Assembly: GCA_046314355.1 (NCBI GenBank)
Contig: JBKBWQ010000001.1
Span: 1,248,001 to 1,312,000 of the forward strand
Length of the DNA stretch: 64,000 bases
From: Candidatus Altimarinota bacterium
GTDB taxonomy: Bacteria > Patescibacteriota > Gracilibacteria > 1-14-2-50-48-13
Reading direction: 5' to 3'
Shown here: positions 3,450 through 35,312 of the stretch, piece after piece
Layout of the letters: each line of letters begins with the position of its first letter
Numbering within the stretch: the stretch's first letter is position 1
Notes under the pieces: model-generated
Told to the model about the DNA's origin: nothing
The model's input: only the letters and a program-made list of their open reading frames with translations
The model's database searches: none
Made by a program: the position numbers and the translations under genes

Positions 3450-3616
3450 GTGTATTGTTTTCACCTGCCGGTGAGGGCTTTTTCTTTTGTAACCAAAAGA
3501 AACAAAAGTTTTGGGGGAGGAGAAAAGCGTCTGGCAGGGTGGGGCGGCTTCGAGAAGTGATCAGACGCTTCTCCTCCCCCAAACCCCCAGGGACGGTGCA
3601 GTTTAGGTGAGGGCTC
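3450..3616. repeat. Dispersed ~165-bp structured repeat, module M1, copy A
   Basis: Near-identical to 21693-21855 and 29461-29626: CACCTGCCGGTG, TTCTTTTG-TAAC-CAAAAGAA hairpin, long TTTGGGGGAGGAGAA..GCGTCT/AGACGC..TTCTCCTCCCCCAAA stem; ends in GGGCTC. Confidence 0.95.
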
Positions 3617-3699
3617 AAGTAACTAGTAACTAGTGACCGTCACTAGTTACTAGTCACTGCGCAGTCAGGCGATGTACCTGCGGTACATGTCATTGGCTC
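3617..3699. repeat. 77-bp palindromic module M2 plus closing GGCTC, copy A
   Basis: 20-bp-arm CTAGT(A/G)A hairpin plus ATGTACC-TGC-GGTACAT hairpin; second copy at 29627-29709. Confidence 0.9.
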
Positions 3700-3720
3700 G
3701 AAGGGGAGAGGGCACAGGCG

Positions 3721-3791
3721 CGTCATCCTGCAGGGTGATTCTTTATCTTCAGTCTCTACATTTAGAACTGTGGGAGGGGTCTCCAAACACA
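3721..3791. repeat. GTCAT-type REP-like hairpin, solo copy of the GIY-YIG element end
   Basis: Starts CGTCATCCTGCAG; 3763-3791 is the exact 29-bp reverse complement of 35235-35263. Confidence 0.9.
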
Positions 3792-3863
3792 GGCTTAGGA
3801 GTAACTATCACACGAGCCTTTTACTCCTTTTGAAAATTGAACTATAAAACTTAGACAAATAAC

Positions 3864-4496
3864 TTAATTTGCCGGTGGATAATATTTCTCCAATCCCTTA
3901 GGGAATACAGGTATAAAAGGTGTGTCTAGGAGTGTCTGTATTTCCTTACAAACATAGGGGTCCTTTGCGAGTTTTATATATTCCTGTGCACTCATTAGAC
4001 CTACATATTCCTGTCCTAAGAATTCATATGCTTCAAGCATTTCACAGTCATATGGTGCTAAGATAGGAATTTTATCAATTGGTGTTACTTCTTTTGTAGA
4101 GATATATTCTACTCCTTTCTCCCATTTGCCGATTTCCCAGTCTTCTCGCTCAATGCGGTAAAAATCTTGTCCTAAAAAGACGTAGATAAATCCTTTCAAC
4201 TTTGCCCCAAGTAAGATGTGACGGTTTTTATAGTATAATCTGTGGAATACAAAACGGTATTTCTCTTTGTATGATTGGTACTGTTCTGTAGGTTCATAGC
4301 AAAACATGCCTGAAGGAGTGGTGTGCCCAAACACTACAGGTTCTCCGAATTCATAATTTCCATTCTCAGTTGGTTTATGGAATGCGGGACTTAGTGTAGA
4401 AAAATCTTTTCCGGAGCCATGAAAAACATATTTTTCTGTACAAGGCTGTACATCGAGAATATGCATTTGTGATGAATCATATGGCGTGAAAAGCAT
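3864..4496 (-). CDS. Hypothetical protein, possible ADP-ribosyltransferase-like (Arr-like) fold
   Basis: YVFHGS..LSP..VVFG..GFIYVF..EYIS..VTP pattern; likely start MLFTP at 4496 because the upstream extension lies in a repeat. Confidence 0.5.
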   Translation of the reverse strand: MLFTPYDSSQMHILDVQPCTEKYVFHGSGKDFSTLSPAFHKPTENGNYEFGEPVVFGHTTPSGMFCYEPTEQYQSYKEKYRFVFHRLYYKNRHILLGAKLKGFIYVFLGQDFYRIEREDWEIGKWEKGVEYISTKEVTPIDKIPILAPYDCEMLEAYEFLGQEYVGLMSAQEYIKLAKDPYVCKEIQTLLDTPFIPVFPKGLEKYYPPAN

Positions 4497-4521
4497 AAGT
4501 ATTCTTATAATTTTGAATGAT

Positions 4522-4581
4522 GGTTTCCGTTGGGCAGACTTCTTCGGCTTCGTTATAATCATCGAACGGAATGACAGGCTC
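4522..4581. repeat. GTCAT-type REP-like hairpin (minus orientation) ending in AGGCTC
   Basis: GGTTTCCGTT...AACGGAATGACA-GGCTC. Confidence 0.75.
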
Positions 4582-4603: not shown

Positions 4604-7264
4604 TTATCCGCTTATTCCTATTCTCGCCTCAATCTCCTGATCTACGAATACTCTTTTTCTTCCATACTTCAGACTTGAATATTTCTTCAAGATAGCTGCT
4701 ACTTTTTCGTTTCTGTCACGTTCATCATTTACTGTCTCGAGGGAGAATGGTCTTGAAGTGGTGTTGTGGATATTGAGTTTTATATAGGCTTTGTAGTTGG
4801 CGATATTTACGATATCCTGATCTGATAGGGTAGGTGCGTATTCTTTTGCTAAATATTCCGCATCTTCTGCACCTACTTTAAAGCTCATCATAGTACCTAC
4901 GTTACCGAAGATGGCATCTCGTACCTGTGTGCTTTGTTTACCGTTGGCGCTCACGACCAGCTGGCTGATATACTGATGGGCCATGATAAGGGCGAGGCGG
5001 TACTTTCTGGCCTCGGAGAGGATGCTGGCAAAAGTATCTGTGGCAAAGTTCTGGAACTCATCCACATAAAGGAAGAAGTCTTTACGGTCCTTAGACGGAA
5101 TGTCTACACGGCTCATGGCTGCCATTGAGATTTTATTTACAAGGATCAGTCCTAGCAGCTGTGCATTAAGTCCTCCGATTTTACCCTTTGAAAGGTTTAC
5201 GAGGAGGATCTTCTGCTGATCCATACATTCCCGGATATTAAAGGCACTCTTTGATTGTCCGATGACATTTCGGATCGTAGTATTTGTAATAAACGGTCCA
5301 AATTTGGCAGAAAAGTAAGGGATCATCTCCTCACGTTCTCTTGCTCCTGTATGGGCATATTCATGCTCCCAGAAGGATCTTACCACTGAGTTTTTAATCT
5401 TCGCTACCTTGTATTTCATGAACTCTTCATCCGTAAACATACGGGGAATATCAATTAGTGTAGCGCCGTCATCCTCATCGTCCATAAGTGTCAGACACGC
5501 ATTTCGGAAATAATGCTGGATTCGAGGACCGAAGATTTCATCTCCATAGAGTTTAATAAAGATTTCTGTGGCGTCGAGACTGGCTCTGTCTTTTTCTTCC
5601 TCTGTCTTTGCCTCTAGGATATTTAGTCCCATCGGGCGATCCTTGTCAGAAGGGTCAAACACTATCACGTCCCGTGCACGTTCCTTTGGAACATAACAAA
5701 GAATATCTTCAATCAAGTCTCCATGAGGATCGATCACACCTACTCCATCGCCGTTCCAGATATCCTGACGTGCCATATACTGTAGAAATACCGACTTACC
5801 AGAACCGGATTTTCCGATCACGTAATGATGTCTTGTACGGTCATCTCTAAGTATGCGGACAAGTTTTTTTACGCCGCGGTAACGGCTATATCCGAGCACA
5901 ACTCCTTCGTTTGGAAGATCTATCGGAGGAGGCAGGATCTTGTAAGACTGCCAGAAGATTACTGGAGATTTATTATAGATGCTATTTGGGAAATGGTAGA
6001 CTGTGGCGAGCTCATCCGGAGTAAGTAGACATGTTTTTACAGCAAATCCGTAGAGACGTTTCTCATAGCCGTAATAGATAAGTGGTGTACTGATAAAGTC
6101 CAAGGGGACTACTCGTCTGTTTTGAAAAAGATTTCCTTTACCGTCACTAAAGATGCTAAAACCTACAACCATATTGTTGAGGATGTCATCAACTCTGTTA
6201 TTTCCTTCTTTTGATGCTGCAACGATTCTGAAAGTTACATTAAATCCGCCGCTCTGAGCTGCCTTTTCACCTACGCGTTTTGCAAACTCTTCATCTGTCT
6301 GAAGCATACGTACATATGAGTCACCTCCTGAGGCACCAGGTGCATTCGTTTTTCCTGAAGGCAAAAATGAGTTATTATTCCATAAGAATCCTAGAAAGCC
6401 AAAAATAGGTCCTATAATAGGGATCTTACCAAAGAAAGACTGATGAATCTTTTTACCTTTAAAGAGAAGGGTACCTTTGGCCTCTGCCTCACGTCGCCAT
6501 TTATTGCTGCTGGGACGAATGATCATCTGGATAGCTGCGCGCTCGTCTTCTCCGAGTTTACTCATCACGTTTGTAATATCATTGAGAGGGTCGTCCTCCA
6601 TTGTTTGATACGTCTTGATAGGATTCCAGAACTCTTTCTTTGTATGCATATAATATCCTTTCACATGATATCCTGTCTCATACATGACTGGAGCTTTTGT
6701 AAGCTCGATCTCGGCTTCAGGATAAAATGTTGTGATCTGCTTTTCTACGATACTTTTATAATAAGGAAGGGTAGCTACGTAAAAGTAGAGATTCTTTTTA
6801 TTGATGTGAAGCTCGAAGCAGACGATATCAGTCTTTAGGAGATAACTTCTGATCATATTCCAGAGATTGATTTCTTTGATCTCAAACAGTGCACGGTAGA
6901 GCTGCTGCATGACAATAAGTGTCTCTTTAAAGTCTTTCTTAGTTTCTTTTTCTTTATCAGATTTAGAATCAGATCTAGAAAGGACTACTTTCATAAAGAT
7001 CAGATGTTTACTTACCCACAGTGCTACAAGCCATTTGAAGAAAAGCTTAAATAGCTTCCATCCGTAGAATATAACGATGAAGGCTACCAGAGCAATAAGC
7101 CAGTATTTTTGAATGTAGGCGATAGCTATTGTGCCGTTTTTGACTGTGCTAGCTAAAAACTGCTGTAATAATAAAAAAATATTATTAGTATTGGCTGCTG
7201 CTTGTTGTGTGGTCCGTGCGACAAGCTGGATGAACATGAGGAAAGAGAGAAATGTGAGTATCAT
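4604..7264 (-). CDS. Membrane-anchored VirD4/TraD/HerA-like ATPase (type IV secretion coupling-like protein common in CPR)
   Basis: N-terminal TM; RTRHHYVIGKSGSGKS Walker A; IDPHGDL; LYVDEFQNF Walker B; LSEARKY; AHQYISQL. Confidence 0.9.
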   Translation of the reverse strand: MILTFLSFLMFIQLVARTTQQAAANTNNIFLLLQQFLASTVKNGTIAIAYIQKYWLIALVAFIVIFYGWKLFKLFFKWLVALWVSKHLIFMKVVLSRSDSKSDKEKETKKDFKETLIVMQQLYRALFEIKEINLWNMIRSYLLKTDIVCFELHINKKNLYFYVATLPYYKSIVEKQITTFYPEAEIELTKAPVMYETGYHVKGYYMHTKKEFWNPIKTYQTMEDDPLNDITNVMSKLGEDERAAIQMIIRPSSNKWRREAEAKGTLLFKGKKIHQSFFGKIPIIGPIFGFLGFLWNNNSFLPSGKTNAPGASGGDSYVRMLQTDEEFAKRVGEKAAQSGGFNVTFRIVAASKEGNNRVDDILNNMVVGFSIFSDGKGNLFQNRRVVPLDFISTPLIYYGYEKRLYGFAVKTCLLTPDELATVYHFPNSIYNKSPVIFWQSYKILPPPIDLPNEGVVLGYSRYRGVKKLVRILRDDRTRHHYVIGKSGSGKSVFLQYMARQDIWNGDGVGVIDPHGDLIEDILCYVPKERARDVIVFDPSDKDRPMGLNILEAKTEEEKDRASLDATEIFIKLYGDEIFGPRIQHYFRNACLTLMDDEDDGATLIDIPRMFTDEEFMKYKVAKIKNSVVRSFWEHEYAHTGAREREEMIPYFSAKFGPFITNTTIRNVIGQSKSAFNIRECMDQQKILLVNLSKGKIGGLNAQLLGLILVNKISMAAMSRVDIPSKDRKDFFLYVDEFQNFATDTFASILSEARKYRLALIMAHQYISQLVVSANGKQSTQVRDAIFGNVGTMMSFKVGAEDAEYLAKEYAPTLSDQDIVNIANYKAYIKLNIHNTTSRPFSLETVNDERDRNEKVAAILKKYSSLKYGRKRVFVDQEIEARIGISG

Positions 7265-10906: not shown

Positions 10907-10987
10907 TCCTTTCTTTCGGAACCATAGCGGTTTACATATACAAAAATAAAAAGATCCTTTGTGTGGCTACAAGGGATTTTTTTATTG

Positions 10988-11069
10988 TGTCATTCCGGAC
11001 TTGATCCGGAATCTTCAAGGTTTAATAGACTCCAATGCTTTAAGATCCCGGGTTAAGCCCGGGATGACA
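10988..11069. repeat. GTCAT-type REPIN-like doublet
   Basis: TGTCATTCCGGACTTGATCCGGAATC...GATCCCGGGTTAAGCCCGGGATGACA: two inverted hairpins abutting the stop codon at 11070. Confidence 0.9.
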
Positions 11070-12569: not shown

Positions 12570-12695
12570 GATTAGGCTCAATCATTAGGGACTCATAATT
12601 TGGGCTCAATAATTGGGCGCACATAATTAGGCTGCAGTAATTGAGCTCAATTACTTAGTGATTGAGTCCAATTATGTGAGTCCTAATTACTGAGT
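12570..12695. repeat. Degenerate ~14-bp tandem/inverted repeat (TAATTGGGCTCA-like)
   Basis: ATTAGGCTCAATC/ATTAGGGACTCAT/AATTTGGGCTCAAT/AATTGGGCGCAC..., then inverted units TGAGTCCAATTA and TGAGTCCTAATTA. Confidence 0.7.
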
Positions 12696-21602: not shown

Positions 21603-21604
21603 TG

Positions 21605-22315: not shown

Positions 22316-22334
22316 CCTCTTTAAGACTGTAGAT

Positions 22335-22363: not shown

Positions 22364-22386
22364 ATCTATCAAATTTCAATAGTTTT

Positions 22387-24561: not shown

Positions 24562-24610
24562 GTAGGGAATAGGATTAGGGATTGGGATAAGAAGTAGTGA
24601 TGATAGTTAA

Positions 24611-24643
24611 CCACTTTGAGAAAGGGGCAGGGGGGTTGAGCCT
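24611..24643. repeat. Degenerate module M3 copy
   Basis: TGAGAAAGGGGCAGGGGGGTTGAGCCT resembles 29731-29760. Confidence 0.65.
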
Positions 24644-24924
24644 CTCTTAGTGTAAGTCAAAGTGCAAGTTACCAGTCACTAGTAAACTCATTTTAAGATG
24701 TACTTTATTTATAGGGGAGGTGGTGGAAAAAATCTAGGGAAAGAAAAAAAGAGGGGTAAGTGGTTCGGTAGATCCGTAGATTTGAGCTGTTAATAGTTGT
24801 TAACAACAGTTCAAACTATACATCAATAAATATTTAGAGTATTTTTGAGATATATAACAATATGTTGTAATATTTTATAAAAGTTGATACTATAAAAATG
24901 AATTATTTTAGTAGAATGTCTGTT

Positions 24925-25254
24925 ATGGCTGATAAAAGTACTTCTCATAGAGGCAGAGTAAGAAAGTTTGATAATAATCTTACTTATTTTGGTATGAAGC
25001 TTACTACTGACGAAAAAGAAAAAATTAAAAATCTTTCTCTTACTCTACATACAACGGCAACTCAGGCCGTACTTAAAGCTGTCGATATTGCCCTTGCCCA
25101 ATATGCTCATGATATTCCTACTGGCAGACGAGTTACTGCAGATGAGCTTTTATCAATGGATAAGGCGACACGAAATAAGGTGATACAGAGTCAAATGAAA
25201 TACGTTGATAAGGATGAATCTATTGAAGACGGATTTGATATTATTGATGATTAA
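24925..25254 (+). CDS. Putative antitoxin (RHH-like N-terminus, acidic tail)
   Basis: Lies directly upstream of the MazF-like toxin with a 2-bp gap. Confidence 0.7.
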   Translation: MADKSTSHRGRVRKFDNNLTYFGMKLTTDEKEKIKNLSLTLHTTATQAVLKAVDIALAQYAHDIPTGRRVTADELLSMDKATRNKVIQSQMKYVDKDESIEDGFDIIDD

Positions 25255-25256
25255 TT

Positions 25257-25610
25257 ATGAAAGATATAAATCCTAAAAGAGGAGAAATATGGCTTGTCGA
25301 ATTCCAACCTAAGGTTGGAAGTGAGATTGAAAAAACTCGCCCTGCTGTGATAATAAATATTCCAGGTATTGTGAGTAGTACAAGAATAATTGTACCAATA
25401 CGTGAACAAAAAGAGCATCATAAAAAAGTATCTTTTTATGTACCGTTGGAACCTGGGAATTATAATGGTCTTAAAAAGAAAAGTACTATTGATTGCTTAC
25501 AGATAAAATCCTTTGATCTCCATAGATTTCAGAAGAGACTGGGAAAAATAACTACTGATCAGCTTGAAGAAATTACAAAGCTGATAGCTATAGAGGTTGG
25601 GTATATCTAA
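25257..25610 (+). CDS. PemK/MazF-family endoribonuclease toxin
   Basis: KRGEIWLVEFQPKVGSEIEKTRPAVII..GLKKKSTIDCLQIKSFD..RLGKI. Confidence 0.92.
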   Translation: MKDINPKRGEIWLVEFQPKVGSEIEKTRPAVIINIPGIVSSTRIIVPIREQKEHHKKVSFYVPLEPGNYNGLKKKSTIDCLQIKSFDLHRFQKRLGKITTDQLEEITKLIAIEVGYI

Positions 25611-25613
25611 TAA

Positions 25614-26027
25614 CTACTTCTTTTCTCCATCCGGAAACAAAAACTTCACTACGATTAGACACATACCCACAATCTGCAGAAAATTCTCTCCAATCACCAG
25701 GCTTATAAATGTAGGATAGGCAGTAAAATCAATAATTCCGAAACCTATGAAAAATGTAATTACGAACTGGAAGAGAATCATTGCATAGAGTGCAATGACC
25801 AGATAGATAGACCATTTATTCCTTAGCTTAAAATATTCTTCACGTCCTTTTCTTTCAGCTTCCTTGTCTTTAATCTCTTGTTCAGAAAGCTCGCTTCTCG
25901 TGGGGAGACCTTCCAGGAGATTTTGAGAAAGACTATTCTCAGCGTGTTCCGTCACAAAATCCATCAGGCTTGAGAGGTGTTCTTTGCTTGTTTCTTCTGG
26001 TACAGGAGGAAGGATATTATCTGCCAT
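25614..26027 (-). CDS. Small protein with two C-terminal TM helices, coupled to the IrrE-like gene
   Basis: Start MADNIL at 26027 overlaps the end of the upstream gene (stop at 26017); charged helix followed by two TMs. Confidence 0.75.
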   Translation of the reverse strand: MADNILPPVPEETSKEHLSSLMDFVTEHAENSLSQNLLEGLPTRSELSEQEIKDKEAERKGREEYFKLRNKWSIYLVIALYAMILFQFVITFFIGFGIIDFTAYPTFISLVIGENFLQIVGMCLIVVKFLFPDGEKK

Positions 26028-26511
26028 ATTCAATTTGTAAACGATAACCAATGACTTCAGGGGAGACTCCGAATATTTTTGCAATGGATGCTACATCCAG
26101 ATCCTTATAAGTATCCAGGAACTTTCTTGGGACTAAAAGATTGGCAGCAAAGGCATTTGCTTCTTTCTCAAGGGGATCTGTAGTGGATGCTCCGAGGGGT
26201 TTTCTATAGAGAATGGCATACTTATGGGGCTCATCCCCAAGCTCAGGCTGATGCAGTATCCAGTGACCGAGTTCATGAGCGATCGTAAATGCTTTTCTAT
26301 GATCCGGATCGGATTTGCTGATATACATGGTTTTGCTGCTGGGATCGATAAATCCGGCAACACTTGCATGTTCACCTATGAATTCGATCTCGACTAATGA
26401 TAGACCGTAGTTCTTGGCAATCTCAACAATATCTATGGGCGGAGTGCAGACATAGTTGTCTTCAATGATCGCCAGTGCCTTGTCTACAGCGTTTTGATAG
26501 TTTGGCTTCAT
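26017..26511 (-). CDS. ImmA/IrrE-family (M78) zinc metallopeptidase without N-terminal HTH
   Basis: PPIDI; RKAFTIAHELGHWILH; EKEANAFAANLLVP; FGVS..YRL. Confidence 0.92.
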   Translation of the reverse strand: MKPNYQNAVDKALAIIEDNYVCTPPIDIVEIAKNYGLSLVEIEFIGEHASVAGFIDPSSKTMYISKSDPDHRKAFTIAHELGHWILHQPELGDEPHKYAILYRKPLGASTTDPLEKEANAFAANLLVPRKFLDTYKDLDVASIAKIFGVSPEVIGYRLQIEYGR

Positions 26512-26586
26512 AAAGGGAGGATTAATTCATCTCTATTATAAAACACCCGTGTATCATATTCAATGACTTTATTTATACTTTCAGTT

Positions 26587-27318
26587 TTATAGTACTTTCT
26601 TGATATCCGGTGTAAGCCCGAAGACAGTATTTCTAAAATTTTTGTATATATATTCCTGTTCTCCTTCTGGTGTTTCTATCACATTCATTATGTTTTTATG
26701 AGCTTCAATATATTCCATTTCTTTTTCTGCAAGTTCGAGACGTTCGATAAGTTCTTTTTTTGAAATGGGAGCTCTGTCTGTAATACGTTTTTCAAGCTTC
26801 TTAATACTTTCAGGAACAATAGCAACTATTTGAAGTCTATTTCTAAATTCAGACTTAAGAAAAACTTCAATTCCTGGAACATCCATTTCACGTAAGACAA
26901 AAGGTTTTCTCAGTTCTGTCTTTAAAATCCCATACTGTTTTCCTGCTCGTAAGGTAGGTGCAATAAACTCACCATTATCTTTACGTTCTTGAAACTCTTT
27001 TTCATCAACAAAATAGTATGTCTCTCCATTCTTTTCTCCAGGACGCATATCTCTCGTAGTCATTGAGAGGGCAAAATGTATTTTCGGCAAAAACAGCAGA
27101 CGTGTTTCATCGATAGAACAATCAGCATTATGAATCGGCTCAAATGTATCCTTATCTACAGCAACAGGCTTCTTATGGTACTTTGCAAGCTCGCCTATAT
27201 TTGTACCTTTCCCCGCTCCTGCAGGTCCCATGACAATAATGATCTTCTTTTCAGAATCATGCGGAGTTTGATCAATCTGAGTCTCAGATCCTACAAAACT
27301 GGTCTGCTTTGTATTCAT
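26587..27318 (-). CDS. gmk: Guanylate kinase-like protein
   Basis: GPAGAGKGT; SMTTRDMRPGEKNGETYYFV; YGI. Has an insertion after the P-loop. Confidence 0.8.
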   Translation of the reverse strand: MNTKQTSFVGSETQIDQTPHDSEKKIIIVMGPAGAGKGTNIGELAKYHKKPVAVDKDTFEPIHNADCSIDETRLLFLPKIHFALSMTTRDMRPGEKNGETYYFVDEKEFQERKDNGEFIAPTLRAGKQYGILKTELRKPFVLREMDVPGIEVFLKSEFRNRLQIVAIVPESIKKLEKRITDRAPISKKELIERLELAEKEMEYIEAHKNIMNVIETPEGEQEYIYKNFRNTVFGLTPDIKKVL

Positions 27319-27559
27319 GTCCAAAAGAAAAAGTATATTTTTCCTATCCTACTATGTTTTAATGTAGAGTCAATAATAATCTATTCAATAGATGTGTCTC
27401 TTAGTGGAAAAGAATAAAAAGCTTAAATTGTGCTCCTCGCTAAGTTTGATCGCACTTTTTGGTTATTAGTCGTGTTAAAATAGATGTATAAAATTGACTA
27501 TTCTTATATTTATTATATATTGCTTGAAATAAAATTAAATATAACGAAGGAGAAAGAAA

Positions 27560-27922
27560 ATGTTTTATTATGCAATTTATGATAATAAAGAAAGAGAAGT
27601 GATGTGTGGTACGGTATCTGATGTACAACTCACGCAAAAAAAATCTGAAAAGTGTAAGGAATACGGTCTAGCAGATATTATCATTGTTACCTTCTCAGGA
27701 GGGGATAAGGTATTTATTCTTGATACAAACCATGCGTGTATCGGACGTGGTTCTTCTCTCGATGCTAAATTTGGACCTGTAAGTTATCAAGACATACAGT
27801 CATTCCTCTGGTTAGTTGTAAAAACTGAAATAAGACTAAAAAATATCAATATAAAAATTGACAGAGATGAAATACTTGAGGGAACCTTGGTTTTAAAATC
27901 ATTGCTCGCAAGAATAATTTAA
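27560..27922 (+). CDS. Hypothetical protein (120 aa)
   Basis: AAGGAG SD; TTGACT-N16-TATATT promoter; terminator downstream. Confidence 0.7.
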   Translation: MFYYAIYDNKEREVMCGTVSDVQLTQKKSEKCKEYGLADIIIVTFSGGDKVFILDTNHACIGRGSSLDAKFGPVSYQDIQSFLWLVVKTEIRLKNINIKIDRDEILEGTLVLKSLLARII

Positions 27923-27931
27923 ATAAATATT

Positions 27932-27969
27932 AAAGAGCTCCCCCGCGTCAAACGCGGCAGGGAGCTTTT
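27932..27969. terminator. Bidirectional terminator with CCGCGTCAAACGCGG core
   Basis: AAGAGCTCCC..GGGAGCTTTT between convergent genes. Confidence 0.75.
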
Positions 27970-27985
27970 CTTTACCTCTACTAAA

Positions 27986-29320
27986 TTATGCTTTATCTGC
28001 TGCTGCCTTAATCTTCTCAGCACTTGCCTTACCGATACCACCGATCATAGTAAGATCCTCTACACTCATCTGCTTCACTGTACTGATATCTTTGATACCT
28101 CCACCGATAAGCTTCTTCTTTGCAGAATCTGCAATATCGAGATTGTCGATGCTATCATCAGCTCCGCCTTTTTCGATGTCCTTCTTAGGCTTCTTTGCTT
28201 CTTTCTTTGGAGCTTCTTCTCCCTCAGCAGCTTCTGTCTCTGCAGCCTCTTCCTTTGGAAGTTTGGCTTCTTTCAGTTCTGTAATATCATGAAGATTGAT
28301 CTCATATCCAGTAAGGATAGATGCGAGACGTACATTCTGTCCTGCCCGTCCGATGGCAAGTGGTCTCTGGTCTGTAGGAACATAGACATCAGCTACTCTT
28401 TTCTTCTGATCAAGCTCTATGACAGAGATCTTAGCAGGGGAAAGTGCCTGAGAAATATACTTCTCAATATCATCGCTGTAAGCCACGATATCGATCATCT
28501 CATTATTGATCTCATCCATAATTGTCTGGATACGTACACCTTTCTGTCCTACACATGCTCCGATCGGATCTACCTTTGGATCGTTACTTTTTACAGCAAC
28601 CTTAGTTCGTACTCCAGCTTCACGAGCAATTCCTTTGATCTCTACTATCTTTGTCTTTACTTCAGGGATTTCAAATTCAAAAAGTTTAGCTACGAGCTGC
28701 GGACTTTTTCGGGAGATCACGAGACGTGGTCCTTTTGTAGTCTGCTCAACAGTAGAAAGGTATACCTTGATACGCTGTCCAAGCTGGTACCGCTCAGACT
28801 GTACTCGCTCTTCACGTGGAAGTGGTATAGTGTTTCTGTCGATTTCTACATACACCATTCCTTTATCTACTCGGGATACCTGTGCAGTAAGTAACTCATC
28901 TTCTCTTTCTTTGAAAGTTTCGAACAAAATATCTCTTTCAGCTTCCTGAAGTCTCTGTAGGATTACCTGCTTTGCTGCCTGGGCTGCAATTCGTCCGAAG
29001 CCTGGAGGTGTAACGTCAATACGGATCTCGTCTCCTGCCTTTGCGTCTTTCTTGTATTTCTTTGCATCTGGTGCAAGAATCTGAAGCTCCTCAAATCCTT
29101 CTTCCTCTTCGTTATAAGTGTCTACTACCTGTCGTACTATATATACTGTAAAGAATCCTGATTCGTCGTCTACAGTGACGTCGATATTCTGATCCTTGTT
29201 TCCAAAGTCTTTTCTGTAGGCTGTCTTGATGGCATCCTGTACTGCATGCATTACCTTGTCGCGGGGGATGTTTTTTTCCACGCAGAGCTGGTTGATGGCT
29301 GAGATGAACTGTTTGTTCAT
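27986..29320 (-). CDS. nusA: Transcription termination/antitermination factor NusA
   Basis: FGRIAAQAAKQVILQ; FEFEIPEV; REAGVRTKVAV; DPIGACVGQKG; AIGRAGQNVRLA; C-terminal HhH. Confidence 0.98.
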   Translation of the reverse strand: MNKQFISAINQLCVEKNIPRDKVMHAVQDAIKTAYRKDFGNKDQNIDVTVDDESGFFTVYIVRQVVDTYNEEEEGFEELQILAPDAKKYKKDAKAGDEIRIDVTPPGFGRIAAQAAKQVILQRLQEAERDILFETFKEREDELLTAQVSRVDKGMVYVEIDRNTIPLPREERVQSERYQLGQRIKVYLSTVEQTTKGPRLVISRKSPQLVAKLFEFEIPEVKTKIVEIKGIAREAGVRTKVAVKSNDPKVDPIGACVGQKGVRIQTIMDEINNEMIDIVAYSDDIEKYISQALSPAKISVIELDQKKRVADVYVPTDQRPLAIGRAGQNVRLASILTGYEINLHDITELKEAKLPKEEAAETEAAEGEEAPKKEAKKPKKDIEKGGADDSIDNLDIADSAKKKLIGGGIKDISTVKQMSVEDLTMIGGIGKASAEKIKAAADKA

Positions 29321-29460
29321 GGTATGAAGAATAATAAATAGGCTTTTTAAAAATGCGCATACTCCACATTAGGAAGTATACGTTATTTGTAGATATATAG
29401 TACACGGGAGTGGGGAGAATGTAAATAGTTTGTCAGGGTACTGGTGATTTGGGGGTGTAG

Positions 29461-29626
29461 GTGTGTTGTTCTCACCTGCCGGTGGGGCTTTTTCTTTTGT
29501 AACCAAAAGAAACAAAAGTTTTGGGGGAGGAGAAAAGCGTCTAGCAAGATTGAGTGTGATCTAGAAGTGATCAGACGCTTCTCCTCCCCCAAACCCCCAG
29601 GGACGGTGCGGTCTAGATGAGGGCTC
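29461..29626. repeat. Module M1, copy C
   Basis: Near-identical to 3450-3616 except in the large loop. Confidence 0.95.
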
Positions 29627-29709
29627 GAGTTACTAGTGGCTAGTGACTGTCACTAGCCACTAGTAACTACGCACCCAGGCGATGTACCTGCGGTACATGT
29701 CATAGGCTC
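29627..29709. repeat. Module M2, copy C
   Basis: Same 77-bp length as copy A; perfect 20-bp-arm hairpin; closed by AGGCTC. Confidence 0.9.
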
Positions 29710-29718
29710 AAGGGGGGA

Positions 29719-29760
29719 GAGCCTATCCCCTGAGAAGGGGGACACAGGGGGTTTGAGCCT
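29719..29760 (-). repeat. Module M3: 30-bp core between AGGCTC direct repeats
   Basis: GAGCCT-core-GAGCCT; core matches 31831-31860 at 26/30 positions on the opposite strand. Confidence 0.9.
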
Positions 29761-29838
29761 CTAGCCCGACAGCTCTTAAGCTAGACAAACTGGGTTATCT
29801 TTACTATGGTGATAAGGTACATTTTCTCTCTGATTCTT

Positions 29839-31083
29839 ATGAAATACAAAATTTTTCTTTCGGGCTTACTTGTAGCCTTTGCGGTGGTTCTTTCTCCTGT
29901 TACTGCATATGCTGCTTCTAGTGTTGCTTGGTCACAGGTTTCTCAGACTTTAGATATCCTTCATGGAGACGAGATTGGTAGTAAAGGGGATAGTTTTTTT
30001 AATAATTTAGCTAAGAAAACGGGCACGGTAACTGTGTCTGCATTTTTTGATGCGTACCGTAGTATGGATAGTATGCTGCCTATTGATGCGCAGTCTATGC
30101 CGGCTTCTCAGATGGTCTCTCCTATGATCTCTGCGCGTGCGAGGGGTTTTATAGATACTGCTGTAAAAGGTTCTGATCTTGTGACGCCTGAGCTTTTTGC
30201 GTCTATCAGTGCAAGAGATATGATCGTACAGAAGTATAAGCCGTATATTATGAAATTTGAGCGCGGTCTTGTCCGTTCTCCTGCAGAGGTAAATGAAAAG
30301 AGTTTTTCTTCGAGAGTAGAAATAAAAGAAATCCTCGTAAGATACAATGGATATCTTTCAAGAGCGGAACTTCCAGATTGGATGAAGAAGGAGCTCGGTA
30401 ACAGAAAAAATCAGTTTATCGCACTTGATAAAGTACTAGAGCGGAAAGAGAAGGAAGCGCAGGCTCTTGTAAAAGAGGATCTTTCAAAACAGCGTGTAGA
30501 ACTTGCTGTAAAGTTTTATAAGCAGCAGAGGAATCTCTCTTGTGAGATGGCAAGTCTCCGAAGTCTCCTCTCTTTTTATGGAAAGGAAGTCGCAGAGAAG
30601 GACCTGCTTGCAACTCTTGGTGTAGATGGTCCAGTGAAAATGACAGACGGAGTATGGGGAGATCCTCAAAAAGGATTTGTAGGTAATGTGGATGGCAAAC
30701 AGGCTACTAAAACTGGGTATGGTACATATTGGCAGGCTGTGGCGCGGGTGGGTGCAAGCTATTACGATAAGATAGGATATTTTGAAGGATCATCAGTATC
30801 TTTCCTTACATCCTCGATCCTTGAAGGAAAGCCAGTGATCATATGGGGACTATTACCTGCTACTGGAGGGAATTTTGAGATTACATGGAAGACAGAGGAA
30901 GGAAAAAGTGTGACTGGGTATAATGGAGAGCACTCTTATCTTGTCTATGGGTTTGTAGGTCCGAAAGAAGCTCCTACAAAAATCCTAGTGGTAGATCCAT
31001 GGTACGGTTATAAAGAAATTGACACGGCTAAGTTTGACGGCTTCTGGTCAAAGTTTGGAAGAAGCGGAGTGCGTGTCCAATAG
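29839..31083 (+). CDS. Secreted protein with C-terminal C39-like cysteine peptidase
   Basis: Signal peptide; FYKQQRNLSCEMASL; GDPQKGFVG; EHSYLVYG; VVDPWYG. Confidence 0.85.
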   Translation: MKYKIFLSGLLVAFAVVLSPVTAYAASSVAWSQVSQTLDILHGDEIGSKGDSFFNNLAKKTGTVTVSAFFDAYRSMDSMLPIDAQSMPASQMVSPMISARARGFIDTAVKGSDLVTPELFASISARDMIVQKYKPYIMKFERGLVRSPAEVNEKSFSSRVEIKEILVRYNGYLSRAELPDWMKKELGNRKNQFIALDKVLERKEKEAQALVKEDLSKQRVELAVKFYKQQRNLSCEMASLRSLLSFYGKEVAEKDLLATLGVDGPVKMTDGVWGDPQKGFVGNVDGKQATKTGYGTYWQAVARVGASYYDKIGYFEGSSVSFLTSSILEGKPVIIWGLLPATGGNFEITWKTEEGKSVTGYNGEHSYLVYGFVGPKEAPTKILVVDPWYGYKEIDTAKFDGFWSKFGRSGVRVQ

Positions 31084-31189
31084 GCATATCCGCAGAATGT
31101 AAATACAGAATCTATGCAAGAACAATGCGTTTACACTGATATGTGCATGTCATATAATGAATCTGTACCTTTAATTAAAAACTATATTT

Positions 31190-31816
31190 ATGTCATATTT
31201 AGTACCTACAGTTATCGAAAAGACTCCCATGGGAGAGCGCGCGTATGATATCTATTCAAGACTCCTCAAGGACCGTGTTATTTTCATGAGCGGTCAGGTG
31301 ACGGATGAGTCAGCAAGTATTGTCATTGCGCAGCTTTTATTCCTACAGAGTGAAGATCCTAAAAAAGATATCGTCATGTATATCAATTCTCCGGGCGGAT
31401 CAGTATCAGCAGGAATGGCCATCTATGATACAATGCAGTATCTGAGCTGTGACGTCTCTACCGTGTGTATTGGTCTTGCTGCAAGTATGGGGTCAGTTCT
31501 TCTCATGGCAGGAGCGAGAGGAAAAAGATTTATTCTTCCTCATGCTGAGGTCATGATCCATCAGCCGCTTATGCAGGGATTAGGTGGACAGGCATCAGAT
31601 ATTGAAATCTATGCAAAACACATCGTAAGAACAAAGGATATTCTTCATAATCTCTACGAGCTTCATACCGGTGAATCAGTAGATAAGATCGTGAAGGATA
31701 TGGACCGTGATAATTTCCTCACGGCAGAGCAGGCTATAAAATACGGTAAATTTGGTCTTGTGGATAAAATCATCGAACACAATACTACACGGCTTACATA
31801 TTTGAAAAAGAAATAG
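31190..31816 (+). CDS. clpP: ATP-dependent Clp protease proteolytic subunit
   Basis: [14 protein letters not shown]; YINSPGGSV; GLAASMGS; MIHQP; DRDNF. Confidence 0.98.
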
Positions 31817-31824
31817 TCATCTAT

Positions 31825-31866
31825 AGGCTCAAACCCCCTGTATCCCCCTTGTCAGGGGGAAGGCTC
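31825..31866 (+). repeat. Module M3: 30-bp core between AGGCTC direct repeats
   Basis: AGGCTC-AAACCCCCTGTATCCCCCTTGTCAGGGGGA-AGGCTC. Confidence 0.9.
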
Positions 31867-31911
31867 TTGGGTCTACATTAATTCTTACTTATCAATTCTT
31901 ATCCTCAACCC

Positions 31912-32769
31912 ATGTATATCAGAGTCAATTATCTGAGGAAGAACGCAATGCATGATCTGGAAATACCCAGAGAAAAAAGTGCTGAGTTCAAGCAGGGTGA
32001 TTATGTTATCCTCCGTATTCCGGAAGAGGAACGTGAGGAAGTAGGAAAAATAGTGCTCAAACATGATTTTGAGACTGCTGAACATAATCCTCCAGTACTG
32101 CTACGTAAAGCAACGGAAGCTGATATTTCACGAATTTCCTACCTTCAGGAGGAAGAGAAGAAGGCATTCTCTATGTTTATGCAGAAGATTGAAAAATACA
32201 GACTAGATATGCAGCCTGTGACTGTATTTTTTTCCTTTGATGGAAAATATGCAGATCTGCTCTTTACCGCAAAGGAAAGAGTAGACTTTCGTGAACTCGT
32301 AAAAGATCTAGCATCGTTTTTAAAGAAGAAAATATTTCTTGAGCAGGTTGGTCCCCGTGACCGTTCTGCCGTTGCAGGCGGATGCGGCACATGCGGACGT
32401 ACTCTTTGCTGCTCCAGTTTTTTGAAGGATCCTCCTCCTGTTACTATGACCTCTGTCCGTAATCAGAATCTTTTCTTTAAGGACCGTGAGAAACTCACTG
32501 GTCTTTGCGGAAAACTCAAGTGCTGTCTCAACTATGAGCTTGATGTGTACGAAGAGCTGGCAAAAGCCTTCCCGCCTATGCAGAGTGAGGTAAAGATCAT
32601 CTCTACAGGCAAGATGGGGACTATTGTAGGCCGAAGCATCCTGGATCAGCAGGTAAAGGTACTTACAAGTGACGGCAACAGACCAGCATTGATACCGCTC
32701 TCAGATATACACGTACTGAAGGCTGCCCGACATAGAGAACAAAGTGCGGTGGCGGAAGTACTCGAATAA
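31912..32769 (+). CDS. PSP1-domain protein (RicT/YaaT-like, Fe-S)
   Basis: FTAKERVDFRELVKDL; GGCGTCGRTLCC; GLCGKLKCCLNYE. Confidence 0.92.
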   Translation: MYIRVNYLRKNAMHDLEIPREKSAEFKQGDYVILRIPEEEREEVGKIVLKHDFETAEHNPPVLLRKATEADISRISYLQEEEKKAFSMFMQKIEKYRLDMQPVTVFFSFDGKYADLLFTAKERVDFRELVKDLASFLKKKIFLEQVGPRDRSAVAGGCGTCGRTLCCSSFLKDPPPVTMTSVRNQNLFFKDREKLTGLCGKLKCCLNYELDVYEELAKAFPPMQSEVKIISTGKMGTIVGRSILDQQVKVLTSDGNRPALIPLSDIHVLKAARHREQSAVAEVLE

Positions 32770-32783
32770 TAACTCTCATTTCT

Positions 32784-33128
32784 ATGGATTGTTTATTTTG
32801 CAAAATAGTATCAGGAGACATACCTGCACCGCGTATATACGAGGATGAAAACATAATCATTATTGAAGATCTTCACCCGAAGGCTCCTGTGCATGCTCTT
32901 GTTATTCCTAAAAAACATATTGAAAGTATCGCACTCCTCAGAGAAGAAGATGCCGGGCTTGTAGGAGACATGCATATAGCAGCTGCAAAGACAGCAAAGG
33001 ATCATTATAAAATACCTGGATATAAAGTAATGTTTAATGTGAATAAGGAGGGAGGACAGGAGATCATGCATCTTCATTTACATTTGCTTGGAGGCGCAGA
33101 GCTTTCTATGCCTAACGCAGGACAATAA
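32784..33128 (+). CDS. HIT-family (HinT-like) hydrolase
   Basis: DCLFCKI; PKAPVHALVIPKKH; GQEIMHLHLHLLGG. Confidence 0.95.
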   Translation: MDCLFCKIVSGDIPAPRIYEDENIIIIEDLHPKAPVHALVIPKKHIESIALLREEDAGLVGDMHIAAAKTAKDHYKIPGYKVMFNVNKEGGQEIMHLHLHLLGGAELSMPNAGQ

Positions 33129-33129
33129 T

Positions 33130-33690
33130 ATGGATAAGCCAACTCTTATTATTATCAATGGTCTCTCTGCCACAGGAAAAAGCACACTCATAGACCGGAT
33201 TACTAGTGAATTTCATCTGCCGATCTTCTCTATGGATGTAGTCAAAGAGTATCTTTTTGATGAATTAGGTACAGATGATACAGAATGGTCAGCAGCACTT
33301 GGAAAAAGCTCTAGAGGGCTTATTTATATGAGTGCAAAGGAAGTACTCGCAGTGGGACAGTCATGCATTGTAGAGGGCTTGTTTGAGCCAGAAGAGAATA
33401 AGAAAAATATTGAATATATCCAGAAAAGTGCTTCCTGCAATCTTATACAGATCATATGTACAGCTGATAATGCAGAACGTATTCAGAGATGGAATGACCG
33501 TGTGAAAAGCGGCGACAGACATCCTGGTCATAATGACGAGATACTTACAGGAGAAAATTATGTGAACGCTCTTGAGGCTTGTGATCCTGTTGTTCCTTTA
33601 GAGGCACCTCTTTTATGCTATAGAAGTGATGCAGAGGACGCTGAAGGGGAACTAAATTCACTGATTTCTGCCCTTAAAGAGCTCCTATGA
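33130..33690 (+). CDS. P-loop kinase (AAA_33-like)
   Basis: LIIINGLSATGKST; DVVKEYLFD; RHPGH. Confidence 0.8.
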   Translation: MDKPTLIIINGLSATGKSTLIDRITSEFHLPIFSMDVVKEYLFDELGTDDTEWSAALGKSSRGLIYMSAKEVLAVGQSCIVEGLFEPEENKKNIEYIQKSASCNLIQIICTADNAERIQRWNDRVKSGDRHPGHNDEILTGENYVNALEACDPVVPLEAPLLCYRSDAEDAEGELNSLISALKELL

Positions 33691-34709
33691 TGCCACTTGT
33701 TACGGTTGGATTTATTAATTATTCTAATCCAAGCATAGGATACTCCAGTAAAAAGTATCTTAAGCTTTTTCTTGAAACCCTCGCTGCACAAACGTATGAG
33801 AATCTTGAAGTTATATGTCTTGATAACGGTTCCACAGATAATGAAGAATCACTTCAAATGATCAAAGAGTTCTATCCTGGAATAAAAATTATTAGAAATA
33901 AAGAAAATACAGGGTTCATTGCACATAATCAGATTATCGCTGAAGGCAAAGGAAAGTATTACTTATGCATAAATTTTGACCTACTCCTAGATCCCCATTA
34001 TATCAAGAATTTGGTGGATTTTGCGGAAGCCCACCCTGATGTTGGAACATTTGGAGGAAGTATTTACCGCTGGGATTTTGCAAAGAATGTTAAGACTGAA
34101 TATTTAGATGCGACTGGTATTACTATTTCTCCATCTCATCATTTACGTGAACGTGAAACTGGAGTACATGTACCATTTGTTGAAATAGAAAAAAGAAATC
34201 CGGAAGAGGTATTTGGAATATCCGGCGTAAGTGTGATGTTCAATAAACAGGCACTTGAAGATATTTATTCTGTATACAACTATTACTTTGATCCGCTTTT
34301 TGTCATTTATAAAGAAGAAGTGGATCTCATGTACCGACTCAGATGGCTCGGATGGAAATCTTGGTATATTCCAAGTGCATTAGCATGGCATGATCGGACA
34401 TTGGGAGAAAAGCAAAAATTTAGATTGAGAAATCTTACAATTCTTACAAACCGTAAACATAAGAGTGAGTACAATAGGAGACAGTCTATCCGGAATCATC
34501 TTTGTATACTCTATAAAAACTTTTCTTTCTCCTTTTCTTTAAAGGTAAAAGTTCTGACATTTTGGGATGAGATCAGGAAATTCTTTTGGGTGCTACTTTT
34601 TGAGAGCTTTGCGTTAAGTGCTTATAAGGATTTTTGGAGAATGAGGAAAGAGTTGAAAGTGAGCAAGAAGAGTGTAGCGCCGGAAGAGATTGAGAAGTTA
34701 ATGATGTAA
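33687..34709 (+). CDS. Glycosyltransferase family 2
   Basis: CLDNGSTD; ENTGF; INFD; YKEEVDLMYR; AWH. Confidence 0.9.
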   Translation: MMPLVTVGFINYSNPSIGYSSKKYLKLFLETLAAQTYENLEVICLDNGSTDNEESLQMIKEFYPGIKIIRNKENTGFIAHNQIIAEGKGKYYLCINFDLLLDPHYIKNLVDFAEAHPDVGTFGGSIYRWDFAKNVKTEYLDATGITISPSHHLRERETGVHVPFVEIEKRNPEEVFGISGVSVMFNKQALEDIYSVYNYYFDPLFVIYKEEVDLMYRLRWLGWKSWYIPSALAWHDRTLGEKQKFRLRNLTILTNRKHKSEYNRRQSIRNHLCILYKNFSFSFSLKVKVLTFWDEIRKFFWVLLFESFALSAYKDFWRMRKELKVSKKSVAPEEIEKLMM

Positions 34710-34724
34710 TAGAACAAGAAGAAG

Positions 34725-35312
34725 CCTGGAGCCGTCATCCAGCAGAGTGTTAAAATAGGAACATAAAGTATCTTGAACTGCAGGAACCATCAAACTCAAG
34801 CCAGGTAGAAAGCATATGAGCTATTATTTAAACGTGTTTATAGAAAATATCTACAACTCTGTTATAAAAGGGTATTTTCCTGCTTAAAATTTAGTAAGCT
34901 TTAAAAAAGCTTACGGCTTACTTATGACATACGCCTATATCCTCGCATCTGAAAAAAACGGTACCCTTTACACAGGGGTAACTATAGATTTAGAAAGACG
35001 ACTTTGGGAACATAAACAAGAATCTAGTAAGGCTTTAAAAAAAAATACAGAATCTGGAGGCTCGTGTATTTTGAATATTATGAATCAATAGTTGATGCAA
35101 TTCATCGTGAAAAACAGATCAAAAACAAGAAGCGAGATTGGAAGAAGAGGCTTATTCTTTCTTTCAATCCTGAGTGGAAAGATTTGAGTGAAGCAATGGG
35201 CGCTTAAGCTCAGTTTTGTTGTTTCAGAATTTTTTGTGTTTGGAGACCCCTCCCACAGTTCTATTATTGAATCTAAAGTTTCTGTGTCACTCTGCAGGAT
35301 GACGGCTCTAGG
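34725..35312. mobile_element. Putative GIY-YIG cassette bounded by 25-bp terminal inverted repeats
   Basis: 34725-34749 CCTGGAGCCGTCATCCAGCAGAGTG versus reverse complement of 35288-35312 CCTAGAGCCGTCATCCTGCAGAGTG (23/25). Mobility is inferred. Confidence 0.6.
34924..35207 (+). pseudogene. Small GIY-YIG nuclease with a single frameshift
   Basis: Frame 0: MTYAYILASEKNGTLYTGVTIDLERRLWEHKQ. Frame -1: GFKKKYRIWRLVYFEYYESIVDAIHREKQIKNKKRDWKKRLILSFNPEWKDL. Shift lies near TTT-A9 at ~35030-35045. Confidence 0.9.

Follow-up and report, generated by a model that had tools for sequence, protein, structure and literature searches.

A hairpin-rich composite repeat and its recurrent GGCTC word between the genes of a Candidatus Altimarinota bacterium

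Why should unrelated palindromic modules, lying between unrelated genes of a single bacterium, end in the same short word? The question is raised by a window of 64,000 nt from Candidatus Altimarinota bacterium (GenBank assembly GCA_046314355.1, contig JBKBWQ010000001.1, here C1, positions 1248001-1312000; coordinates without the C1 prefix are window positions). An original prediction, made from the letters alone, saw several hairpin modules (M1, M2, M3 and GTCAT-type hairpins) meeting at (A/G)GGCTC and proposed that one enzyme inserts or shuffles them there as cassettes. What it saw is confirmed and statistically sound. Free cassette insertion has several results against it. The reading favoured here, which is moderately probable, takes the modules as segments of a lineage-specific, non-coding, hairpin-rich family of small interspersed repeats, a mosaic resembling BOX elements, Neisseria intergenic mosaic elements (NIMEs) and bacterial interspersed mosaic elements (BIMEs). 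On that reading, the composite is spread to 17 intergenic sites beside unrelated genes; shorter loci derive from a master element by truncation at the 5' or 3' end, by internal loss or by use of another 3' end; and (N)GGCTC belongs to several segments as their inherent terminal word and is not target sequence that was duplicated.

BLAST searches of the genome with the modules, together with an alignment of long copies, place M1, M2 and M3 as consecutive segments of one composite repeat with the order L-S-M1-M2a-M2b-M3-T/G and a length of up to about 520 bp. A module map with one long copy as reference counts 17 M1-bearing loci in the genome. Wherever two or more modules occur together, at 15 loci in all, they are collinear and co-oriented, M2a alone, a palindrome, being scored as inverted; because order and orientation are fixed in these 15, the variety of loci amounts to nested subsets, not shuffling. 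The three composite loci of the window are such subsets: M1-M2a-M2b-(degenerate M3)-G at copy A, L-S'-M1 at copy B and M1-M2a-M2b-M3 at copy C. The original prediction was right to treat the modules as genuine dispersed repeats (16 complete M1 copies and one truncated, over the 17 loci), and its comparison with mosaics of repetitive extragenic palindromic (REP) sequences and BIMEs is apt; its combinatorial assembly of loci gives way to subsets that are never permuted.

The segments differ in form and constancy. L is a GTCAT-type hairpin, GTGTCATTCCCG-loop-CGGGAAYCC, and S an AT-rich spacer of 107 nt. M1 measures 155 nt, all of its copies lie on C1, and these differ by 5-25%, with subfamilies up to 95% alike. 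Its 3' end is an exact GGCTC in 14 of the 16 complete copies and GACTC or TGCTC in the other two, preceded by 8-10 variable nucleotides; the extraction script stopped at the first GGCTC, and the alignment columns are homologous in all but one copy, which required a 7-nt insertion. In the four M1-only copies, similarity stops right after GGCTC and unique DNA lies beyond. M2a is a palindrome of ACTAGTN heptamers that changes length in 7-8-nt steps, and M2b is a 7-bp hairpin followed by GTCA(N)GGCTC. M3, a 42-nt segment present in 12 copies, reads GAGCC-(T)ATC-CCCCTGAGAAGGGGG-ACACAGGGGGTTT-GAGCC; the 3' GAGCC is found in 11 of the 12, and the 5' GAGCC adjoins directly in six, stands one 8-nt GAGCCTAT step away in three and is absent from three. 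The composite then closes with either T (GAGACTCTCATC...GAGCGTCATCCCGTTC...) or G (GTCATCCTGCAGAGTG..., about 95 nt), and M2a, M2b, M3 and T are variably present among composites.

Some modules also occur away from M1. M3 stands alone at three sites and once with M2a, with the word at both edges in three of these four; M2a is found once, L-type hairpins at several sites, and G as five single ends and two inverted pairs. The nine genuine G ends are tipped by GAGCC (four), (G/A)CGC (four) or TGTC (one), and half of the GTCAT inverted repeats carry GGCTC/GAGCC. One gene-less inverted G pair of about 200 bp (C1 794096-794294) has the form of a miniature inverted-repeat transposable element (MITE), being small, non-coding and ended by terminal inverted repeats, with unlike flanks: GAGCC on one side and GCGC on the other. 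Solo hairpins of the form GTGTCATTCC(C/G)G...C(C/G)GGAAT were seen at 10987-11015 and at C1 569177, 572295 and 1363545.

Neighbouring genes and relatives bear on how the family spread. Genes downstream of composites are functionally unrelated and include SecA, EF-P, RlmH, thioredoxin reductase and DUF305. In 40 relatives, the nearest genomes compared (0.7-2.0 Mb in size), M1 had no match above 34 nt; these sizes, with the in-frame TGA codons noted below, would suggest a small-genome, Patescibacteria-like class. The exact M1 core had 0 matches in the genome collection and 0 in the metagenome collection, and the exact G end 0 in genome contigs and 0 in viral contigs.

Every coordinate in the original prediction proved correct when hexamers, spacings and hairpins were reread from the sequence. 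M1 ends in GGGCTC at 3611-3616 and 29621-29626 and in AGGCTC at 21850-21855. The second hexamer of M2 is TGGCTC at 3694-3699 and AGGCTC at 29704-29709, with exactly 77 bp between hexamers in both copies. M3 is bracketed by AGGCTC at 31825-31830 and 31861-31866, with 30 bp between them, and by GAGCCT at 29719 and 29755, with another at 24638. The GTCAT-type ends read ATGACAGGCTC (4571-4581), ATGACGGCTC (35299-35308) and GAGCCGTCAT (34729-34738). A repeat search recovered the pairs independently (D1, 232 nt, 88%; I2, 47 nt, 89%; I13, 28 nt, 89%). Several unrelated modules thus do end in (N)GGCTC, as had been claimed: the word closes M1 and M2b, frames M3 and forms the outer tip of some G inverted repeats.

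Counted over the whole genome, GGCTC/GAGCC is not over-represented (1414 observed vs 1521 Markov-expected). Its density between genes is 2.5 times that in coding DNA (350 occurrences in 197 kb), fifth among 512 pentamers, and the three most intergenic-specific heptamers are GGGCTCG (21-fold), GGGCTCA (17-fold) and TGGGCTC (16-fold). Within the window, 19 of 61 occurrences are intergenic (11,016 intergenic bases), and 14 of the 19 sit, by our own reading, at edges of described modules. For a test blind to GGCTC, breakpoints were taken where BLAST alignment ends cluster in 28 module-bearing loci; of 121 such points, 31 have GGCTC/GAGCC no more than 3 nt away (8.6% expected), the top count of 512 pentamers (binomial p = 3e-8). 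That p-value is overstated because copies of one family share descent; the independent cases come to about five family edges, namely the 3' ends of M1 and M2b, the two M3 ends and the outer G end. The predicted enrichment at module boundaries holds for the 28 module loci; over all intergenic repeats, unit arrays swamp the breakpoint test (2.0-fold, rank 9).

The word does not mark every joint. It edges only 4 of 17 recurrent internal indels, most internal length variation being symmetric 7-8-nt ACTAGTN steps in both M2a arms, and it is missing from the M2a/M2b joint (GCAGCCAG), the L hairpin and about half of the G ends. Three simple accounts of the word were set aside. A restriction or very-short-patch-repair drive for GRGCYC does not suit a genome in which GGGCTC is not enriched (237 vs 216 expected), and the AGGCTC and TGGCTC junctions do not fit it. 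A DNA-uptake-sequence role finds no highly abundant 10-12-mer beyond the centre of the arrays described below, and a genome-wide rule of hairpin followed by GGCTC is weak.

A second GGCTC family, absent from the original prediction, contains most intergenic GGCTC. Its arrays consist of 13-14-bp units of ATT(G/A)GGCTC type (ATTGGGCTCAAT, ATTGGGCGCACAT, ATTGGGCTGCAAT and similar), flip orientation at the perfect palindrome ATTGAGCTCAAT and are often flanked by (AGTAATT)n-like tracts. This 14-nt centre has 57 occurrences in the genome; none of 200 other class genomes has it more than once. Besides the array of the window, examples lie at C1 1224176, 633685 and 757174, and the sites number about 40-57 overall; by spacer type, 9 of 38 arrays are divergent, 6 convergent and 23 tandem. 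Close GGCTC pairs (3-25 nt apart) are direct in 75 cases and inverted in 24, their spacing peaking at 13-14 and 27 nt. Both arms of an array use the same unit types in differing order, so hairpin pairing is not the conserved property. The composite and array families are linked, because units of array vocabulary (GGGCTGCA, GAGCTCA, GGCTC) replace M2a in three composites, where short GGCTC-ended units stand in its place (C1 34833, 973530 and 1522760). As a separate observation, AGTAAGTAAGTA-type 12-mers are among the commonest of the genome and often lie beside unit arrays.

Table 1. Repeat modules, arrays and bracketed genes located in the window
Feature	Position	Strand	Description
M1, copy A	3460-3616	+	5' hairpin CACC-TGCC-GGTG, then CTTTTG..CAAAAG hairpin; long hairpin GGGGGAGGAGAAAAGCGTCTG...CAGACGCTTCTCCTCCCCC with variable tip; variable linker; terminal GGGCTC
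M2, copy A	3617-3699	+	M2a, ACTAGTN-stepped palindrome (about 3617-3661), then M2b
M2b, copy A		+	Hairpin GATGTACC-TGC-GGTACAT, then GTCATTGGCTC; closes with TGGCTC
Degenerate M3 remnant, 3'-half-like	3700-3721	+	GAAGGGGAGAGGGCACAGGCGC, without terminal GAGCC; by eye, same arrangement from C1 973530
G module, copy A	3722-3816	+	GTCATCCTGCAGGGTGATTC...GAACTGTGGGAGGGGTCTCCAAACAC...; preceded by GCGC, not GAGCC; 3763-3791 is an exact inverted copy of 35235-35263
210-aa gene	3864-4496	-	232-aa open reading frame (ORF) reaches 4562; likely start Met23
T-like module	4500-4581	-	GAGCC-TGTCATTCCGTTCGA...39 nt...TGCCCAACGG; outer end ATGACAGGCTC; likeness to long-copy T judged by eye, no match in module-map BLAST
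Unit array	12572-12690		Centre ATTGAGCTCAAT; adjoins RNase P RNA gene
Copy B	21604-21855	+	L hairpin GTGTCATTCCCG-loop-CGGGAATCC (21604-21652), spacer, M1 (21699-21855) ending AGGCTC; 3' side unique DNA, then gene at 21863
Degenerate M3 remnant	24600-24690	+	Ends GAGCC (24638-24642), then M2a-like remnant CCAGTCACTAGTAAAC
Copy C	29470-29760	+	M1 to 29626, M2 29627-29709, M3 29710-29760 (GAGCC at 29719 and 29755)
Solo M3	31825-31866	-	GAGCC-TTC-CCCCTGACAAGGGGG-ATACAGGGGGTTT-GAGCC, in 95-nt clpP-PSP1 spacer
GIY-YIG element	34729-35308		580 bp; 22-nt terminal inverted repeats GAGCCGTCATCC(A/T)GCAGAGTG

Cassette insertion can be confronted with other genomes of the class. M3-like cores, sought with an IUPAC pattern, occur in 3 of 150 other genomes (9, 2 and 2 copies) and in one unrelated metagenome contig, the reversed-pattern control giving none. 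None of the nine copies displayed has GAGCC/GGCTC within 70 nt upstream, and their 3' ends read TTTGAG followed by CC (two), CT (two) or TT (one) or are more diverged (four). The 3' GAGCC was inherited with an older element and is not a target duplication, because it is found, variably, in the M3-like cores of other genomes; the 5' GAGCC appears, from the sequences compared, to be peculiar to this genome. An empty site had been expected to hold a single GGCTC. In three of three family-level relatives (ClpP 73-77% identical), the clpP-PSP1 spacer that carries the solo M3 of the window is 8, 1 and -1 nt long and, in the printed sequence, holds no GGCTC; on the criterion of the original prediction this tells against insertion, but these relatives are too distant for a fair test. 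As a side observation, another conserved hairpin, CCCACCTAGCCTCCCTT-loop-AAGGGAGGAA, comes after the M3-like hairpin of L033 and L037 (G076), and the class may have many composite hairpin repeats of such a style.

Folding and orientation point in more than one direction. The whole long copy folds far better than shuffled sequences on both strands (z-scores -6.2 and -7.5), and its + strand folds 21 kcal/mol better than its - strand. The long M1 hairpin has compensatory double changes in 9 alignment columns, mainly in the three most diverged copies; 13 of its 17 G:U-type cells come from one column, so the wobble asymmetry is uninformative. M3 loops are G-N-N-A on the composite + strand in all 12 copies, and M3-like copies elsewhere have the same loop. 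The downstream gene runs in the direction of the composite at 13 of 17 loci (one-sided p = 0.025), the upstream gene at 10 of 17 (not significant). Three of the four M3 copies outside M1 composites sit 22-50 nt downstream of a co-directional gene, and the solo M3 of the window is antisense to clpP-PSP1. The first M1 hairpin scores as terminator-like, and by eye GATGAG-GGGCTC at the end of M1 can pair with GAGCCC...CTCATC after M3. A promoter scan of one long copy gave no promoter-like site on the element strand; TTGGTT-N17-TATAGT, picked out by eye in long copies as an own promoter, failed that scan. In Rfam 15 the window passes only for RNase P and the long copy draws two chance-level miRNA rows (E ~0.7), and a known RNA family was rejected for the modules. 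Taken together, these features fit co-transcribed RNA-folding elements and equally hairpin recognition in single-stranded DNA.

Which enzyme might have moved the modules? The original prediction called for a search for a co-occurring nuclease or recombinase, and profile searches of the genome found no recombinase linked to the modules. The sole transposase found is an IS200-type Y1 enzyme, intact in one copy (C1 772701-773060) and frameshifted in another, and its ends are CCCCGGAG...CTCCGGGG hairpins without GGCTC modules; IS200 was rejected as the mobiliser because these ends are unrelated. No other Y1 gene resembling REP-associated tyrosine transposases (RAYTs) was found in the genome at E <= 0.01. 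Many genomes of the class have RAYT-like Y1 domains (20 of 41, the IS200-type genes here included), and Y1 was likewise dropped as a partner of M3-like repeats: all three M3-bearing relatives have it, but no association follows because 20 of the 41 genomes sampled have it anyway. Y1 matches in two class relatives, G024 and G036, contain 3-10 in-frame TGA codons. Some class members have in-frame TGA within conserved genes; G024 and G036 probably read TGA as sense, and the genome of the window has long ORFs under table 11.

Three tyrosine recombinases (PF00589) are encoded in the genome, none near modules by coordinate, and the modules are dispersed, not gathered in a single array as an integron-type comparison would have them. 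Searches of the genome at E <= 0.01 returned no TnpB, IS110, reverse transcriptase, rve, DDE_Tnp_1, MOBP relaxase, TrwC or Nop domain (PF01798, 0 matches). Retroelement spread in the manner of short interspersed nuclear elements was rejected because there is no reverse transcriptase, an IS110 bridge RNA or TnpB guide RNA because neither enzyme was found, and an origin-of-transfer (oriT)/relaxase site because neither a MOBP nor a TrwC relaxase was found. The G end contains ATCCTGC, which has some likeness to an IncP nick region, a lead that was dropped.

Small GIY-YIG genes are present in the genome. That of the window is frameshifted, in pieces 34924-35091 and 35064-35207, within the 34729-35308 inverted repeats; another, intact at C1 1415688-1415891, has the word 100 nt upstream as GAGCC and 47 nt downstream as GGCTC, a weak case. 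The window element and the G pair at C1 794096-794294 share their inverted repeats and may be a small GIY-YIG-borne mobile element and its miniature derivative. Inward GTCATYCC ends, at 3722 (+) and 4576 (-), flank the 210-aa gene. Its protein family is rare (24 representatives in 1.84 billion proteins), and elsewhere the domain is fused to LigD 3'-phosphoesterase, NUDIX and 2H phosphoesterase domains. The AlphaFold model is confident, with a predicted local distance difference test (pLDDT) score of 91.7, the single-sequence fold reaching a pLDDT of 34, and the model has no PDB fold match at E <= 0.001. Given these fusions, the protein may be an RNA or DNA end-processing domain; a recombinase role found no support, the fusion partners elsewhere being RNA-repair-type domains. 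Two paralogous TrwB/TraG-like coupling-ATPase genes, at 4604-7264 (-) and C1 846348-848747 (-), each adjoin a composite repeat and a G module.

The assembly itself deserves attention. It comprises 1,688,208 bp in 28 contigs with 38% G+C and 98% marker completeness, and the single public run with the region, a hot-springs metagenome, is probably its source. Contigs break at repeats of this kind. An independent Logan assembly of the same run, and so of the same reads, has long records that match 20500-36000 with 0 differences. Contigs from the run with the locus, and from another run of that study, showed no alternative junctions at modules, the joints listed being repeat cross-matches. The ends of the 1.62-Mb contig C1 are identical over 121 nt (1-121 and 1618935-1619055) inside a composite repeat, and the chromosome probably closes within it. 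The window also holds 8-nt microsatellites, (TTACTCTC)n and (AGTAAGTA)n, at 35464-35527 and 55711-55776.

How might such a family arise? On the favoured reading of a modular interspersed repeat, the elements would be non-autonomous, like MITE, REP or BOX elements, and copied by a protein that recognises ends made of a hairpin plus GGCTC. Cutting or ending at alternative GGCTC words would produce the nested set, and short-repeat recombination and slippage, at GGCTC and within palindromes, would produce the clean presence/absence variants. Once inserted, the elements would mostly be co-transcribed with neighbouring genes and fold into stable stem-loops. Candidate roles for GGCTC are the end used by a mobilising nuclease, the core of a protein-binding site and microhomology for the loss or joining of units. 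Several observations weigh against this account. No mobilising enzyme for the modules was identified, and no target-site duplication was recognised by eye at composite flanks. The composite ends, left GTCATTCC... (GTGTCATTCC) and right GTCATCCC... (GCGTCATCCC), are direct, not inverted. Empty and filled alleles, excised forms and strain variants are not visible in the contigs of the one run. Genome-wide, GGCTC outside unit arrays is only weakly associated with hairpins and has no side preference (13.8% with a nearby hairpin upstream and 11.9% downstream, vs 9.4% and 8.3% for permuted words). The label intergenic rests on crude gene calls (ORFs of at least 100 aa, greedy choice), and the compensatory changes and orientation bias fit a purely RNA-level function equally well.

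Free insertion, excision and shuffling of hairpin cassettes by a site-specific nuclease or recombinase that duplicates a GGCTC core, in the manner of integrons or IS200/IS605, would explain the solo M3 between direct AGGCTC repeats (and the word at both edges of three of four solo M3 copies), the M1-only copies that end exactly at GGCTC, the enrichment at breakpoints and the GGCTC-ended units substituting M2a in three copies, in a genome that encodes a Y1 (HUH) transposase, three tyrosine recombinases and small GIY-YIG nucleases. Yet all 15 multi-module loci keep one order and orientation, M3-like copies elsewhere lack the 5' GAGCC (0 of 9) and vary at the 3' end, the clpP-PSP1 spacer of three of three distant relatives lacks the word, several junctions and all but 4 of the 17 recurrent indels do without it, the IS200 ends are unrelated, and no joined or alternative forms appear in contigs of the locus-bearing run. 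The single inserting and shuffling enzyme of the original prediction is accordingly improbable, its difficulties being the fixed order, the 5' edge of M3 elsewhere and the many indels away from the word. Quite doubtful, too, is a version in which GGCTC is the cleavage-and-joining word of an unrecognised hairpin- or single-strand-specific enzyme that builds the composites, the GTCAT-bracketed single-gene cassettes (3722-4581 and 34729-35308) and the 57 arrays; candidates for it would be the small GIY-YIG nucleases, one of which lies inside GAGCC-tipped inverted repeats, or an enzyme of no known family.

If the composite were instead a structured or cis-acting RNA family (stem-loops of untranslated regions, terminator-like hairpins or stabilisers), with the modules as optional helices and GGCTC/GAGCC as helix halves or linkers, the compensatory M1 changes, the 21 kcal/mol strand difference, the uniform G-N-N-A loops here (12 of 12) and in other genomes, the 13 of 17 composites co-oriented with the downstream gene, the M3 copies placed past co-directional genes (three of four, three being alone and one with M2a), the terminator-like first hairpin and the pairing between M1 end and post-M3 sequence would all find a place. 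Against it stand the want of an Rfam match and of a promoter-like site on the element strand, the truncated and degenerate copies, the antisense solo M3 of the window, the predominance of direct over inverted close GGCTC pairs and the uninformative wobble asymmetry; such a role is unlikely, and is compatible with spread by transposition. Binding by an abundant nucleoid-associated protein or global regulator at ATTG(G/A)GC(T/C)CAAT, maintaining arrays and module edges alike, accords with the near-palindromic 12-mers of 57 arrays, set at a 13-14-bp period round ATTGAGCTCAAT, with arms that hold the same unit types in differing order and with the presence of arrays in all spacer types (9, 6 and 23 of 38). 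The M-module junctions, though, lack the ATTG...CAAT context, no candidate protein was identified, and the protein would have to be new to the lineage, given at most one match in each of 200 class genomes; we consider this distinctly unlikely. Hardly credible is chance resemblance or an assembly artefact. A metagenome assembly with contigs broken at repeats and C1 ends overlapping within a copy invites the suspicion, but the intergenic, heptamer and breakpoint statistics, the agreement of the Logan assembly (from the same reads) and 5-25% divergence with compensatory changes, not expected from chimeras, oppose it.

Small-genome, probably symbiotic bacteria are usually seen as streamlined, and the present genome holds at least three layers of lineage-specific non-coding repeats that share GGCTC. 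If the word is the recognition site of an enzyme or protein, it would offer a handle on how mosaics form, a question shared with NIMEs, BIMEs and BOX. Were it a cleavage-and-joining word, this would be a second, mechanistically different 'punctuated' intergenic mosaic after the NIMEs of Neisseria. If it is no recognition site, the finding would be an ordinary, though well-documented, case of modular interspersed repeats. Even then, the repeats would help in annotation: assemblies break there, and false ORF calls inside them can be avoided. A limited literature search by title and abstract, covering too few papers for a claim of novelty, returned no published account of such repeats.

REP and BIME sequences with their RAYTs, like IS200/IS605 elements, combine short GC-rich imperfect palindromes and a conserved flanking word into mosaics with a hairpin-linker-cleavage-word geometry; in REP and REPIN systems, a single-copy Y1 gene is flanked by its own repeats. 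The M1 and M2b ends share that geometry, and M3 (42 nt, 12 copies) and the L hairpins (19) have a REP-like size and form, although copies are few and mostly not in inverted pairs. The only Y1 genes here, by contrast, are of IS200 type and have unrelated ends, and the M modules mostly exceed REPs in length. Integrons keep an IntI tyrosine recombinase beside attI, and each member of the array ends in an attC hairpin.

Arrays of tandem interspaced guide RNAs (TIGRs) carry a pair of variable spacers, each of 9 nt, between repeats of 8-12 nt and neighbour a Nop-domain gene, Tas (PMC12045711). They are short-period arrays found in parasitic bacteria with small genomes, some types having palindromic units (PMC12045711). 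The unit arrays resemble them in this and are unlike them in having almost no variable part and in being scattered over about 40-57 sites. A TIGR identity was rejected in view of the missing Nop domain and 9-nt spacers.

Two systems come closer. BOX elements of Streptococcus pneumoniae and S. suis consist of boxA, a variable number of boxB and boxC, with boxD, boxE and boxF in S. suis, span 67-637 bp and have terminal inverted repeats and target duplications; they are intergenic and co-transcribed, lack a transposase of their own and are predicted to form RNA stem-loops, a middle module folding independently and so being able to be absent or multiple (PMC3049150). The composite here likewise has distinct modules in fixed order with variable inner modules, a likeness of kind and not of family. 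It differs in lacking terminal inverted repeats and recognised target duplications and in forming GC-rich islands within AT-rich spacers, and BOX is not known to have an edge word in common with other repeat families.

NIMEs comprise many unrelated 50-150-bp repeat sequence (RS) families split by the constant dRS3, a 20-bp inverted repeat, ATTCCC-N8-GGGAAT, that flanks RS units; the paper describes the arrays as dynamic, as then unseen beyond Neisseria, and dRS3 as a proposed recombinase site (PMC1797815). The hairpin word GTCATTCC(C/G)G occurs 19 times in the present genome and the exact ATTCCC-N8-GGGAAT once in C1, and the likeness of that hairpin to dRS3 is probably coincidental. The word here is shorter and asymmetric (5-6 nt), no phage or recombinase targeting it is known, and it separates about eight module types in fixed, not free, order. 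Here, as there, a constant short word stands between unlike units. The best-supported description joins the two systems, with an architecture like that of BOX and, between unlike units, a constant word like that of the NIMEs.

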